From: a virus
Strand: one strand, 5' to 3'
IMG/VR virus record: IMGVR_UViG_3300001305_000002
Span: 1-29,339 of that record
Length of the DNA: 29,339 bases
Of the stretch, positions 2,750 to 25,647 are shown piece after piece. Each line of letters starts with the position of its first letter. Within the stretch, counting starts at the first letter, position 1. Made by a program: the position numbers and the translations under genes. Under the pieces are notes generated by a model. It searched no databases. It was given only the letters and a program-made list of their open reading frames with translations, and was not told the DNA's origin.

Positions 2750-2762
2750 TAATCGGTCATAA
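2750..2762 (-). promoter_or_regulatory. Putative late promoter motif TTATGACCGATTA
   Basis: The identical 13-mer occurs at 7569-7581; member of the recurrent CCGAT family. Confidence 0.65.
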
Positions 2763-2766
2763 TTAA

Positions 2767-3006
2767 TTAGGTAGTCACTTTAGTTGTTACACATCTTCCT
2801 GTACTGTCATAATAGTGTAATGCTCTTTTAAAATTGATACCTTGAGCTTCTCTCAGCATCTTGGCACAATCAGAACAAGCTATTTCCATATACATTCCTG
2901 AAGATGGAAGGTGTTCCTGAAGAAGAACTAAAAATAACTTCTTGAACTTACCAGGGCAACGAATTTCTATTGCATTATCTGGTATATTGAATTCTTCAGT
3001 TTCCAT
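2767..3006 (-). CDS. Small Zn-finger-like protein with partial resemblance to Mu Com
   Basis: IRCP..KKLF...EIACSDC...LHY; Cys/His residues could ligate a metal. Confidence 0.55.
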   Translation of the reverse strand: METEEFNIPDNAIEIRCPGKFKKLFLVLLQEHLPSSGMYMEIACSDCAKMLREAQGINFKRALHYYDSTGRCVTTKVTT

Positions 3007-4117
3007 TATTTACTCCTGACATAAGTGATTTCTGATAGATCTCTTTACCTTTGCCAGGAACTAATTGACCTACTTTTTCATACAAGCGAGATACTATGTT
3101 GTCCCAGCTCATAAGTTGAGGAATTATCTCTGAAGCTAAATCTGCTTTCTGCTTAACTTCAGCACGATTTCTAAAGGTATGAAGCATGAGTGCTTTCATA
3201 TGATCTTTATCGGCCCTAGCGTTATAAACTGTAGGACAACCATCAAGAGGCATAAGTTTGTAATCTAAAGGATAAGAGTATTCAGGAGATAGCCATCCTG
3301 TGTGGCCTCCCCAATTAGTAGCAATAACTGCTCCACCCATTGATTGAAATTCTAGGGCAGGCATGTTCTTTCCTTCCCCGCGAGAAGGAGCACACAATAC
3401 GTGCTGTACAGAATAGAACTGCTTGAGCACATCTTCAGGCCAAGATGCGTAATGAACCTTTAATTTAGGAACCCATTGTTCCATAGCAGAATGAAGACCT
3501 AATGTCATAGTCTTAAGATGCAATTCTGCTGGCTCAAACTCTTCAGGGTATTCTTCTTTTAATTCTTTAAATGCCATGATAGTAACGAAAGGATCTTTCC
3601 TTTCATTCAGCATTCCAGTCATGCAGAAACCAAAGCGTTTACTGAACCAATCCTTTTCAACTTTAGGCCAATTCTCAGGTAGGAAGCCACCTTGTAATAC
3701 GCCTGTAGAGACCTTTGATTTATTTATGTACTCGTCAAAACAGTTCTTGGTTACTTCGTCATACCCGAGTAATAAATCATAAGTTTTTAATGCTTTACGT
3801 AATTTAGAACGACCAGTCATGTTGTCAAAATTAGTGAACTCCCACATACTCCACCCGACAGTAACTGTTGATGAAGATCGTTCTTGAGAGAGTAATCCTA
3901 GTTGCATAGGATCAACATGATGAATCATTAAATCGAATGGAGCTTCTAGACGTTTACCCAGCAGAGCTAATACATCTGGTGGTAACGGAGCATCCACATG
4001 AGTAGGGTGTAAATAAACATCTGCACCACTACGAATTAAGGCACGAGCTAGACCTATGCCATCATTACCATATCCTGTATAAACTGATACAGGAGTCTTC
4101 AATAATACTCTTAACAA
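2996..4117 (-). CDS. Glycosyltransferase, GT-B fold (GT4-like)
   Basis: N-terminal TGYG, then ERK and PSRGEGKNMPALE (E-x7-E motif) followed by VIATNWGG. Confidence 0.9.
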   Translation of the reverse strand: MLRVLLKTPVSVYTGYGNDGIGLARALIRSGADVYLHPTHVDAPLPPDVLALLGKRLEAPFDLMIHHVDPMQLGLLSQERSSSTVTVGWSMWEFTNFDNMTGRSKLRKALKTYDLLLGYDEVTKNCFDEYINKSKVSTGVLQGGFLPENWPKVEKDWFSKRFGFCMTGMLNERKDPFVTIMAFKELKEEYPEEFEPAELHLKTMTLGLHSAMEQWVPKLKVHYASWPEDVLKQFYSVQHVLCAPSRGEGKNMPALEFQSMGGAVIATNWGGHTGWLSPEYSYPLDYKLMPLDGCPTVYNARADKDHMKALMLHTFRNRAEVKQKADLASEIIPQLMSWDNIVSRLYEKVGQLVPGKGKEIYQKSLMSGVNNGN

Positions 4118-4164
4118 AATATCCTCCTGGGATTCTTATTTGTGTTGTTAAGAGTATTATCGGT
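4102..4164 (-). promoter_or_regulatory. ACCGATAA motif plus a 16-bp hairpin masking the start codon
   Basis: 4102-4117 ataatactcttaacaa and 4145-4160 ttgttaagagtattat form a perfect inverted repeat. The motif core is at 4159-4163. Confidence 0.7.
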
Positions 4165-4171
4165 CTAGCTG

Positions 4172-4651
4172 TCAGAAAAATACCGCATAGTATGCTGAAG
4201 CGATCATAATTCCGTCGCCATCAGTAATAGCTACTGGCTCACTTATGTCTACTAATCTATCACAAGCGACAGTAGCAATATCAGCCCAATATACTGTTGC
4301 AGGATCTGTTCTGTTTAAATACTTATCTATTACTTTAAAAGTATCGTTTATCTTCCATCTAACAGTCCTAGGATTTGCTAGATTACCATTACCATCTCTT
4401 GTACCGTTAGCCCAGATAGTAACTCGTAACCTTCTCCCTCTAAAACGAGAAGTAGGTAATGATGCTAGAGGACCAGCATCTTCTACGACAACAGCACTAA
4501 CAGCCTGATATTCATCGTATTCTAAGTTAACGAGAATTTCATCTCTAAAAATGAAAGGTTTCAATGTTAAATTAAATTTACCTACTGCATCAACTACTTC
4601 AGGAATGTTAAGAAGATAAAGTACCGCAGCTCCTTGCAGATCCTCTGCCAT
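4172..4651 (-). CDS. Tail terminator / tail completion protein
   Basis: Last gene of the connector cluster; size and the RLRVTIWA strand pattern are typical. Confidence 0.65.
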   Translation of the reverse strand: MAEDLQGAAVLYLLNIPEVVDAVGKFNLTLKPFIFRDEILVNLEYDEYQAVSAVVVEDAGPLASLPTSRFRGRRLRVTIWANGTRDGNGNLANPRTVRWKINDTFKVIDKYLNRTDPATVYWADIATVACDRLVDISEPVAITDGDGIMIASAYYAVFF

Positions 4652-4653
4652 AA

Positions 4654-23612: not shown

Positions 23613-24336
23613 GTAATCTCCTTAGTGTGTTTCTTACTCGTCTGATGTCACCATCAAAATCATCGTTCAGATAATCGTGATAAATTCTTTTGTCTGATGC
23701 ATCTAAATTATGTGAACCTGAGAAATCATATCCTGCATCTTGCTGTGATTTACCTGCGGCTGGATGCATATGCTCTATGACTACTTCAGGCATATAGGCT
23801 AATCTTCCTAATTCTTTACCGAAGTCAAGCCAGAAATCATCAGCATAAAGATGAGATAATTGTGGCAAAGTCATAAATCCTAATGATAGTGGAATGTCAG
23901 CAGTCATAGCGATATGAGTAGGAATCTTTTCACCTTGTAATAAATCATTACCATAAACTAATCCTGCTCTCATTTCCAGCAGTTTACCTACAAACTTCTC
24001 ATCCCAGCCATAAGTTCTTGGCATATGGTCATCGCCCATAAAACCTAAAGCATAACTATAGACTTTCTTTCTATCTTGCAGATAGCCCAGATTTAAAGGA
24101 TCTACAAAACCAGGTTTCTGAGGACTTACAGTAATAGTGCAATCAAGACTGTGATAATCATTAATTTTAGCATCATTATCAGATAATATGAATACGATAC
24201 GACTTGCTAATACAGTACTCTTGTAAAACTGCTCTTGAAGTCGAATAGCATTATCAGGTCTGCCTTTTGTCGGTACATACATTGTTAAGTCGAATTCGTT
24301 ATCTTTCAGGTCAGGGTAGAACAAAACATCCTCCAA
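23602..24336 (-). CDS. Glycosyltransferase, GT-A fold (GT2-like)
   Basis: VPTKGRP, FMGDDH, LYADD and IEHMHP. The true start may be a few codons downstream, since GGAGG overlaps the annotated TTG. Confidence 0.8.
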   Translation of the reverse strand: MEDVLFYPDLKDNEFDLTMYVPTKGRPDNAIRLQEQFYKSTVLASRIVFILSDNDAKINDYHSLDCTITVSPQKPGFVDPLNLGYLQDRKKVYSYALGFMGDDHMPRTYGWDEKFVGKLLEMRAGLVYGNDLLQGEKIPTHIAMTADIPLSLGFMTLPQLSHLYADDFWLDFGKELGRLAYMPEVVIEHMHPAAGKSQQDAGYDFSGSHNLDASDKRIYHDYLNDDFDGDIRRVRNTLRRLHEA

Positions 24337-24342
24337 ACATGC

Positions 24343-24373
24343 AAAAAGCCCACCCGCAGAGCAGATGGGCTTT
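24343..24373 (-). terminator. Intrinsic terminator after the endolysin
   Basis: AAAGCCCATCTGC-TCT-GCGGGTGGGCTTTTT. Confidence 0.75.
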
Positions 24374-24386
24374 CTGATTATTCAAT

Positions 24387-25262
24387 TTACTTAGCAACTC
24401 CATCACGGAATGCAGTTTTTACTGCGTCTGACAATTCTGCTGGGGTAATCTTAACACCAGCAGGTAATTTAGCAGAAAGAGCATCAGCTAATGCAGTAGC
24501 GAATTCTTTGTTACTTGCTAGTGCAGCAGCTACAGCTACTTCATCTACGTCATCAGCTTCGATCAATGGCTTAAGTGCATTGATAACTTTATTAGCTGAT
24601 GAATTGTTTACTGAATCATTGTAGCGCTGGAAATCTCCAGCAGCAGTTGTCTTCTTAGGGTCATCAGTTCTTACTAGACGGTAATCCCAGACAGCTTTAG
24701 CAATTTCATTAGCTGTAGGCATATCATCATCTCCTTTAGATACTGTACTTGTATTAGTTTTTCCTAGGTATTCTGCTAATGTCTCACCACGAAGCATAGA
24801 CAGAATAGCTTTCATGGCTACTTCGTCATTAACATATCTACGACGAATCTCCATATGAATGTGCCACTTGTGATCAGCAGTAGCAGTAGTTACAGTGCCT
24901 TTTATGACATCATAACGTCCTGCATCACCTTTACCATCCCAACCGTTCCATGCATTGATGTATTTCATGCGAGGATCGTTATTACGGTTCAGCCAGATAG
25001 TGCGCAGACGAGAATGACACTTAATCATGTCACTAGTGCTCATAGTCATATCAACAGCAGATGCTCGATCACTAGGACCTAATTTATCATCTGCTCTGAT
25101 GACAGAATAGTTAGAACTACCTTGATCCTGCCTAGAGATGTGATAACCACCTCTGGCTTTGTGAGCTAAATCACCTACGATACCTGATAATACAGCAGTA
25201 GGGTATAATTTCTCCCACTCCCTAGCTAAAGAATTAAGTGTAGTTGTTGATAAAGTAGTCAT
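24387..25262 (-). CDS. Putative endolysin (Zn-peptidase, M15/LAS-like N-terminal domain)
   Basis: GDLAH..GYH, SAVD and DHKWHIH motifs; GDDDMPTANEIAKAVW linker and an Ala-rich C-terminus, as in actinophage lysins. Confidence 0.65.
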   Translation of the reverse strand: MTTLSTTTLNSLAREWEKLYPTAVLSGIVGDLAHKARGGYHISRQDQGSSNYSVIRADDKLGPSDRASAVDMTMSTSDMIKCHSRLRTIWLNRNNDPRMKYINAWNGWDGKGDAGRYDVIKGTVTTATADHKWHIHMEIRRRYVNDEVAMKAILSMLRGETLAEYLGKTNTSTVSKGDDDMPTANEIAKAVWDYRLVRTDDPKKTTAAGDFQRYNDSVNNSSANKVINALKPLIEADDVDEVAVAAALASNKEFATALADALSAKLPAGVKITPAELSDAVKTAFRDGVAK

Positions 25263-25603
25263 CAGTTAACACCTACCTCTTCAGGTAATGCGCGAACCTC
25301 AGTGTTACCTGATTCTGCGGCAGATCGTGCCTTTTCCATATCTAATTCTCGGGTAGGGTCTATTCCACTGAGAGTTGTTTCTTTTATGACATCTAGTTTT
25401 TGTTCTTCAGTCATTTCATCCCAGAGTGGGTCATAGCCGACTGGACGTGCAAAGAACTTTCCAGTATTTTCAAAGAAATCATATAGCCAAGCTTTGTTGG
25501 TTGGCTTACTGATGAAAATTACACCGCCTGGAAACCTGCTTTCTACAGCTTTTCCATCCATAGGACCGCCTACGCCAAGACCTGTGTATAAAGTCTCTTC
25601 CAT
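25262..25603 (-). CDS. Hypothetical protein
   Basis: Start moved to ATG 25603 (MEETLY) behind AAGGAG; GCCGATAC motif upstream (core 25638-25642). Confidence 0.65.
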   Translation of the reverse strand: MEETLYTGLGVGGPMDGKAVESRFPGGVIFISKPTNKAWLYDFFENTGKFFARPVGYDPLWDEMTEEQKLDVIKETTLSGIDPTRELDMEKARSAAESGNTEVRALPEEVGVN

Positions 25604-25647
25604 TTCAGCACACTCCTTATATGTCCTCTTTAGTGGTATCGGCATAT

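Follow-up and report, generated by a model that had tools for sequence, protein, structure and literature searches.

It is textbook knowledge from T4 and SPO1 that phages can encode sigma factors by which the host polymerase is redirected. The late promoters of T4 (TATAAATA) are many, short, and limited to a -10 element, and they are read by the phage sigma-family protein gp55 with gp33; gp55 consists of region 2 only and requires gp33 and the sliding clamp. In SPO1, early promoters are used by the host sigma factor, and the phage sigma factors gp28 and gp33/gp34 then redirect the host core polymerase. In actinobacteria, leaderless mRNAs are common, and promoters of the TTGACA / TAGNNT type are typical. 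For bacterial sigma-28, cryo-electron microscopy placed the Pseudomonas fliC promoter at (-15)GCCGATAA(-8) and showed a flipped-out A at -11 (PMC12784957), and the actinobacterial WhiG consensus is T(A/C)AA-N16-GCCGATAA, in which the central CGA is the most conserved or invariant part and the last three bases are variable (bioRxiv 10.64898/2026.01.14.699351). In Microbacterium phages of clusters EC and EI, an annotated sigma gene occurs together with an asymmetric 18-base-pair (bp) motif located 21–30 bp before start codons, and a link between the two was proposed but untested (PMC9224216). No description of phage-encoded FliA/WhiG sigma factors or of sigma-28-type late promoters in phages was found in the literature searched. 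Here, we analyzed the first 29,339 bases (hereafter, the window) of the 108,159-base IMG/VR contig IMGVR_UViG_3300001305_000002 from an uncultured soil phage, in which an octamer with the core CCGAT (hereafter, the box) recurs upstream of virion genes. The placement of the box and the sigma genes of related phages suggest that the boxes are probably the -10 elements of phage late promoters, read by a phage-encoded factor of the sigma-28 family.

Placement, composition, and conservation of the CCGAT box

The preliminary description of this DNA had listed CCGAT cores at 2752, 3209, 4159, 7571, 9066, 11331, 14466, 15025, 17199, 19853, 20654, and 25638 on the minus strand and at 22252 on the plus strand. 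All of them were present on these strands, and the octamers read as given there. The raw count of CCGAT in the window was not above chance (20 versus 23.3 ± 4.3 in shuffled sequences). With respect to placement, bases 1–29,700 of the contig contained 11 gene-strand copies in 1,858 intergenic nucleotides (nt) and 4 in 27,842 coding nt, corresponding to a Fisher odds ratio of 41 (p = 6e-11) with our own gene calls; the 11 intergenic copies include one at 29663, just beyond the window end. Dinucleotide shuffles of the intergenic pieces contained 0.95 copies on average and 6 at most in 1,000 shuffles, compared with the 11 observed, in agreement with the intergenic enrichment claimed earlier. Copies were found in 11 of the 22 gaps of at least 20 nt, and the only antisense intergenic copy in bases 1–29,700 was located inside the loop of the capsid terminator. 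The boxes had also been described as oriented with the downstream gene, which was borne out by this gene-strand bias and by the box at 22252, the sole plus-strand box, which precedes the sole plus-strand gene of that stretch. Its counterpart is kept in the complete related genome G001 (135,654 bases), to which the contig aligns in reverse from 119.6 kilobases (kb) down to 14.6 kb. The counterpart lies at 99586, on the minus strand there and in that gene's own orientation, indicating that the box follows the gene direction.

In the whole contig with transfer RNA (tRNA) genes masked, CCGAT was the most enriched 5-mer in oriented upstream regions, with 26 sense and 13 antisense copies (3.9-fold, p = 1.4e-8). 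Boxes were also observed ahead of non-virion genes at contig positions of about 63225, 82715, 94395, and 102078, and those at 102078 and 94395 appear to match G001 positions 21481 and 30997, respectively. The boxes outside the virion block may mark late-expressed genes scattered in the other arm. Inside the window genes, CCGAT seemed rarer than expected on both strands, at about 4–5 copies per strand compared with about 10 expected from dinucleotide shuffles. This scarcity would seem to fit selection against stray promoters that consist of a -10 element only.

A weighted logo of 40 sites from 12 orthologous groups gave [G/A/T]CCGAT[A/T/G][A/T], and no column upstream of -5 exceeded 0.3 bit. 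When the sites were compared with the -10 element of sigma-28 promoters, CCGAT was found at 12/12 window sites and at 29663; position -15 was G, A, or T, and positions -9 and -8 were mostly A or T. The variable last three bases of the WhiG consensus agree with this variation among the phage boxes. The statement that a TAAA-type -35 element is lacking held, because T[AC]AA occurred at a spacing of N15–17 upstream in 0/13 sites (background, 3.4%), and a search by k-mer enrichment between -42 and -17 yielded no -35 element after multiple-test correction. Judging from these sequences, the boxes constitute a putative -10-only promoter class, and, since no -35 element is present, recognition would depend solely on the composite -10 region. 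Promoters of a different kind had been reported at 8966 and 22062, and sigma-70-like sites were indeed present at 8994–8966 (GTGACA-N17-TAGACT) and 22091–22062. In the contig-wide upstream analysis, the words TTGACA and TAGTGT / TAGACT marked sigma-70-like promoters of other genes; within the window, sigma-70-like sites were found at chance level only. The minus-strand box at 25638 adjoins a divergent TTGACG-N17-TAGTCT on the plus strand from 25648, which faces plus-strand genes from 25684.

The box was invariant at 12 orthologous sites in up to five relatives, and the flanks were almost completely diverged. G001 replicated the placement, with 12 intergenic gene-strand copies in 2,885 nt versus 14 in 36.8 kb (odds ratio 11, p = 8e-8). 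In Microbacterium phage Magritte (OR553905; 64% guanine-plus-cytosine [GC] content, proteins about 50% identical), protein comparison with which gave the gene identities used in this study, the box recurs as CGATATCCCTG in 10 or 11 gene-strand copies. All 10 occurrences of the word CGATATCC, one of them covered with shortened context, are on the gene strand, and the related word GATATCCC occurs 11 times. Four of the Magritte copies precede or fall within genes that also have a box in the window, namely the tail tube, scaffold, nested scaffold, and capsid genes, and the relative G003 carries CCGATACTCC at the same gene positions. The forms of the box in these two phages are [C/T]CGATAT and CCGATAC, respectively. 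No intergenic enrichment of the box was detected in distant relatives of 30% GC, and searches in the high-GC relative G002 (L013) based on k-mers and on GC at third codon positions (GC3) gave no conclusive match.

The position of the box relative to start codons in these relatives is informative about the start of transcription. An octamer followed by exactly 7 nt and ATG, with no ribosome-binding site, was found in five cases, three in Magritte and two in G003. The Magritte cases are the annotated starts of gp19 (scaffolding) and gp98 and an ATG at 5353 before the gp9 body; the scaffold boxes of Magritte (18361) and G003 (18759) both have this spacing. Two of the five are independently annotated starts, and one matches our own open reading frame call in G003. 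Transcription of a leaderless gene begins at the first base of its start codon, and the 7-nt spacing equals the (-15) to (-8) geometry of sigma-28. A start point 6–8 nt past the octamer, as predicted in the preliminary description, would fit the putative leaderless genes of Magritte and G003. As for Magritte gp9 itself, its annotated start is 5332, and the CGATATCCCTGAC-ATG arrangement points to a leaderless start at 5353 (L001:5332-5360).

A short element without a -35 could also be a half-site, in which case the box would bind a late activator other than a sigma factor or act as a promoter for a different polymerase, and the portal-site copy in relatives is in fact one arm of an inverted repeat, CTGCCGAT...ATCGGCAG. 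However, the inverted partner is missing at most sites, the fixed distance to the leaderless ATGs suits a -10 element and not an upstream activator site, and the relatives carry a sigma gene of the matching family. We therefore consider this explanation very improbable.

A sigma-28-like gene in related phages

The sigma factor encoded by G001 (133907-134626) is 239 amino acids (aa) long. Its best family was TIGR02479 FliA_WhiG (E 9e-34, 117.1 bits), to which it aligned over 1–223 of 224 positions; other FliA and WhiG models came next, and the SigB/F/G model scored far lower (E 1.6e-14). Its solved-structure matches, which were full length, were only FliA (Pseudomonas, E. coli, Aquifex) and WhiG (Streptomyces, Rubrobacter). 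When aligned to 9wsf_A by phmmer, the phage protein has R and D at the positions of the Arg in DWAPR and the Asp in KYD, respectively. With the numbering offset between the 9wsf_A chain and PMC12784957 that we deduced, these two residues correspond in Pseudomonas FliA to R97, which contacts -15/-14, and to D66, located at the flipped -11 A, so that the phage sigma factor keeps both. Region 4 passed the Pfam cut-off (28.8 bits), and region 3 (PF04539) was recorded for several members of the phage sigma family.

The same best family, FliA/WhiG, was obtained for Magritte gp47, which is annotated just as "DNA binding protein" (L001:47155-47895), and for proteins of G002, G003, G008, and G009. Magritte gp60 (L002:3644-4345) carries the same annotation and is an extracytoplasmic function (ECF)-like sigma factor with region 2 and a SigX-like match; it has orthologues in G002 and G003, and none in G001 or this contig. 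A wide protein search for the FliA/WhiG-like factor yielded about 110 clusters of 238–246 aa with 44–100% identity, many of them on contigs of 130–139 kb, and the next proteins beyond this clade were at most 33% identical. The Joint Genome Institute (JGI) pipeline labels many of the clade members FliA. Among GenBank phages, homologues were found only in Magritte and a few unannotated metagenomic contigs.

No match to a FliA/WhiG-like sigma factor was obtained in the complete Coruscant genome or in the contigs G004–G007, G011, and G012. Intergenic box copies were also absent in G004–G007, G011, and G012, and no box was found within the 50 kb of Coruscant examined, a stretch without its head and tail genes. 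Coruscant gp191 (L004:7204-7713) is annotated as "putative RNA polymerase sigma factor"; it gave only weak N-terminal helix-turn-helix and terminase-type hits and has no relative here, and it was discarded as a candidate sigma factor. Located just before the large terminase gene, it looks more like a small terminase subunit. A phage-encoded FliA-like factor had been one of two options offered in the preliminary description, and it is supported by the sigma gene in the close relatives G001, G008, and G009, whose sequences are complete or larger, and in Magritte, G002, and G003, and by its absence from the box-less relatives. A search for such a gene in the rest of the genome had been suggested as well. 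In this 108-kb contig, no sigma gene was detected with the Sigma70_r2 and Sigma70_r4 profiles (PF04542 and PF04545) or by tblastn with the sigma factors of the relatives, and the full-length FliA/WhiG-like factor was found only in the relatives. The gene is missing here because the contig does not contain the stretch of about 28 kb that holds it in G001. This stretch runs from the tape-measure gene across the contig join and ends at about 13 kb; in G001, it comprises the remaining tail genes, the genes for the helicase, the sigma factor, and the dUTPase, and about 13 kb of further sequence. The distance from the portal start to the downstream sigma gene is about 29 kb in G001 and G008, and the same distance would here end about 12 kb past base 1.

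In both G001 and Magritte, the sigma gene follows the helicase gene. The G001 operon of helicase, sigma, and dUTPase genes, located after the tail genes, starts with TTGCAT-N17-TACAAT, which is consistent with a cascade in which a promoter of the host sigma factor drives production of the phage sigma factor. In such a cascade, this sigma-70-like promoter would cause the sigma factor to be made along with the replication genes. The host core RNA polymerase with the phage sigma factor of the FliA/WhiG/SigD family would then read the boxes and activate at least a dozen separate late units, comprising head, scaffold, portal, tail tube, glycosyltransferase, and lysis-side genes. We infer that the factor binds the box, that transcription starts about 7 nt after the octamer, and that the genome from which the contig derives also has the gene.

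The other option was a host developmental sigma factor. In that case, a host factor of the sigma-28 type (WhiG/FliA) would read the boxes, virion production would be tied to sporulation or motility, and the phage sigma factor would serve other genes. The box equals the -10 element of actinobacterial WhiG and FliA promoters, and the early promoters here are of the TTGACA / TAGNNT type, both of which are compatible with a host factor. However, host WhiG/FliA promoters have a well conserved -35 element, in contrast to the 13 sites described above; the phage lineage has its own sigma-28-like gene, which co-occurs with the box; and the box is retained across phages whose GC content ranges from 41% to 64% and whose hosts probably differ. 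A host developmental factor is thus not needed, has become less likely than when it was suggested, and is in our view unlikely.

Several observations weigh against the reading of the boxes by a phage-encoded sigma-28-family factor. The sigma gene is not on the contig, and its presence in this phage's own genome is deduced from the relatives. The G001 sigma factor scored below the curated TIGR02479 cut-off (117.1 versus 189.6 bits), and its Pfam region 2 match was weak (16.3 bits). It retains region 4, yet the boxes have no -35 element, which is unusual for sigma-28. G002 has the sigma gene, but its box was not identified. In addition, the boxes at 7571 and 9066 are separated from their genes by a terminator-like hairpin, which is odd for a productive promoter. 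At 7571, this is a strong hairpin at 7546-7519, and at 9066, the hairpin is followed by the sigma-70-like site at 8994–8966. The order of box and then terminator (within about 25–40 nt) is kept in relatives at both sites, and these boxes may produce attenuator-like leaders or short late RNAs, or they may depend on read-through. The box at 9066, already flagged as doubtful, remains doubtful as a promoter of the gene at 7595-8911 because the terminator and the sigma-70-like promoter come after it. The lack of a -35 element and the score below the curated cut-off suggest that the proposed factor is a variant of the sigma-28 class and not a plain member.

Individual box sites and hairpins

The positions of the boxes and of the genes identified by comparison are summarized in Table 1.

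Table 1. Boxes and identified genes in the window
Feature	Position	Strand	Context
ACCGATTA	2750..2757	minus	62 nt before major tail protein gene; kept in G001 and L008
ACCGATAA	4157..4164	minus	41 nt before glycosyltransferase gene
ACCGATTA	7569..7576	minus	83 nt before gene 7110-7487; box invariant in five relatives
TCCGATTT	9064..9071	minus	154 nt before 438-aa gene 7595-8911; kept in G001
GCCGATAA	11329..11336	minus	136 nt before major capsid protein gene
GCCGATAA	14464..14471	minus	within scaffolding protein gene
GCCGATGA	15023..15030	minus	31 nt before scaffolding protein gene
GCCGATAT	17197..17204	minus	30 nt before portal gene; box invariant in five relatives
TCCGATTA	19851..19858	minus	43 nt before gene 19045-19809, homologue of Magritte gp11, beside terminase
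GCCGATAG	20652..20659	minus	23 nt before gene 20181-20630 (149 aa); kept in G001 and L011, diverged flanks
TCCGATAA	22251..22258	plus	29 nt before plus-strand gene 22286-22897
GCCGATAC	25636..25643	minus	34 nt before gene 25262-25603; kept in G001 (96181), diverged flanks
Tail assembly chaperone	1576-2088	minus	by comparison with Magritte
Major tail protein	2132-2689	minus	59% identical to Magritte gp33
Glycosyltransferase	2996-4117	minus	by comparison with Magritte
Major capsid protein	10196-11194	minus	by comparison with Magritte
Scaffolding protein	13857-14993	minus	39% identical to Magritte gp19
Portal	15321-17168	minus	by comparison with Magritte
Terminase	17214-19043	minus	by comparison with Magritte

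The window boxes lie 23–154 nt before start codons, with AGGAGG-type ribosome-binding sites in between. The ortholog of the major tail protein in Magritte, gp33, has its own box at Magritte 29541. The distance of the capsid box from its gene predicts a long leader of about 127 nt. This box is invariant in five relatives with fully diverged flanks, where little is common except (G/A)CCGATA, and Magritte and G003 carry GCCGATCC about 110 nt before their capsid genes. The gene behind the box at 15025 had been called a protease and is actually the scaffolding protein gene. The box inside this gene is a candidate internal promoter for a nested product, and coding constraint is also a possible explanation for the window copy. 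The homologous codons of the scaffolding gene hold the full box in Magritte (18889) and G003 (19284), and the Magritte copy is followed by an in-frame ATG 9 nt after the octamer. The box at 19853 directly follows a terminator (19899-19866), giving the classic order of terminator, promoter, and gene. The gene downstream of the box at 25638 is the first of a block holding a 291-aa cell-wall hydrolase-like gene. The variant GACGATTG reported at 13371 is present, but it was not found in relatives and remains doubtful.

At three sites, hairpins were found (4100-4165, 19800-19860, and 17165-17205) in which a 5′ arm formed from the box or the bases just after it pairs with the region of the start codon and ribosome-binding site. 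At 4159, the 5′ arm begins inside the octamer and the hairpin masks the start codon; in L008, the box and the hairpin are both retained, with compensatory changes. At 17199 in relatives, the box is the 5′ arm, and the 3′ arm abuts the ribosome-binding site. Compensatory changes were observed in L008, G001, and L011, for example AATACTCTTAAC/GTTAAGAGTATT versus AATACCTTTAGC/GCTAAAGGTATT.

These hairpins at 4159, 19853, and 17199, with the compensatory changes in relatives, could mean that the motif acts mainly in RNA, as part of a hairpin, an adjacent protein-binding site, or a processing site, and not as a promoter; the position of the box between a stop codon and a terminator at 7571 and 9066 points in the same direction. 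However, hairpins are absent at 2752, 11331, 20654, and 25638, and the fixed 7 nt to ATG without a ribosome-binding site in Magritte and G003 matches the sigma-28 spacing. A role mainly in RNA would also make the match of the box to sigma-28 promoters and the co-occurring sigma gene coincidences, and we regard it as quite unlikely. A promoter and a function in RNA can coexist, because transcripts begun past the box do not contain the 5′ arm.

When folding was predicted, transcripts from the predicted +1, from which the 5′ arm is gone, showed a more open ribosome-binding site at most sites; this is only suggestive, as shorter RNAs fold less anyway. With such gating, only transcripts from the late promoter, without the 5′ arm, would be translated, and read-through transcripts would be silent. 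As a tentative and rather doubtful extension of the promoter reading, soil phages of a widespread clade with genomes of about 135 kb might have captured a sigma-28-type factor as a late sigma factor free of the -35 element, with translation at several genes gated by the start site via hairpins.

The contig has 41% GC, 33 tRNA genes, and a CheckV completeness of about 80%. Its virion genes are read on the minus strand from about 29.6 kb toward base 1; there, the contig end cuts the tape-measure gene (window 1-1074). The closest cultured phage is Magritte, with a terminase identity of 49%, followed by Streptomyces phages of the BE cluster (33–35%). A 10-kb megablast query had no match among GenBank phages, and the names of the nearest cellular homologues gave no pointer to the host. 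A search of IMG/VR with the portal protein revealed relatives at 72–77% (L005–L012) and about 48–50% (L013–L018) identity and many at about 30–35% identity.

Comparison with known systems

The only cultured member with the pair is Magritte. The pair consists of a defined sigma factor and an 8-bp box with clear start-site predictions and is a possible small orthogonal expression switch for actinobacteria. With the box, the late regulon could be annotated in about 100 related metagenomic phages, and the pair raises the question of cross-talk with the host WhiG/FliA regulon and with anti-sigma factors.

Like the promoters of bacterial sigma-28 factors (FliA / SigD / WhiG), the boxes have the -10 element GCCGATAA with an invariant CGA and, as predicted, the (-15) to (-8) spacing to the start point would be the same. 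The phage sigma factor likewise has FliA and WhiG as its best family and only solved-structure relatives, and the key Arg and Asp are kept. In contrast to the bacterial system, there is no TAAA or T(A/C)AA -35 element, and the predicted targets are genes for the virion and for lysis instead of those for flagella or sporulation. The factor is also phage-encoded, at most 33% identical to proteins outside its clade, and below the curated cut-off.

As in T4, the late genes would be placed under many short promoters consisting of a -10 element only, with a predicted phage-encoded reader of the sigma family. Unlike gp55 of T4, the phage sigma factor described here is full length (239 aa) with region 4 present, and the box is unrelated in sequence to the T4 late promoter. 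The proposed cascade to a phage sigma factor resembles that of SPO1, whose late -10 element, GATATT, is similar to CGATAT, but SPO1 late promoters carry the -35 element CGTTAGA, and SPO1 sigma factors are outside the sigma-28 family. The Microbacterium phages of clusters EC and EI share the host genus of Magritte and similarly combine a sigma gene with a repeated upstream motif, whereas their motif is TAgaCTATagGTgTaAgC and their genomes are smaller (KaiHaiDragon, 53 kb).

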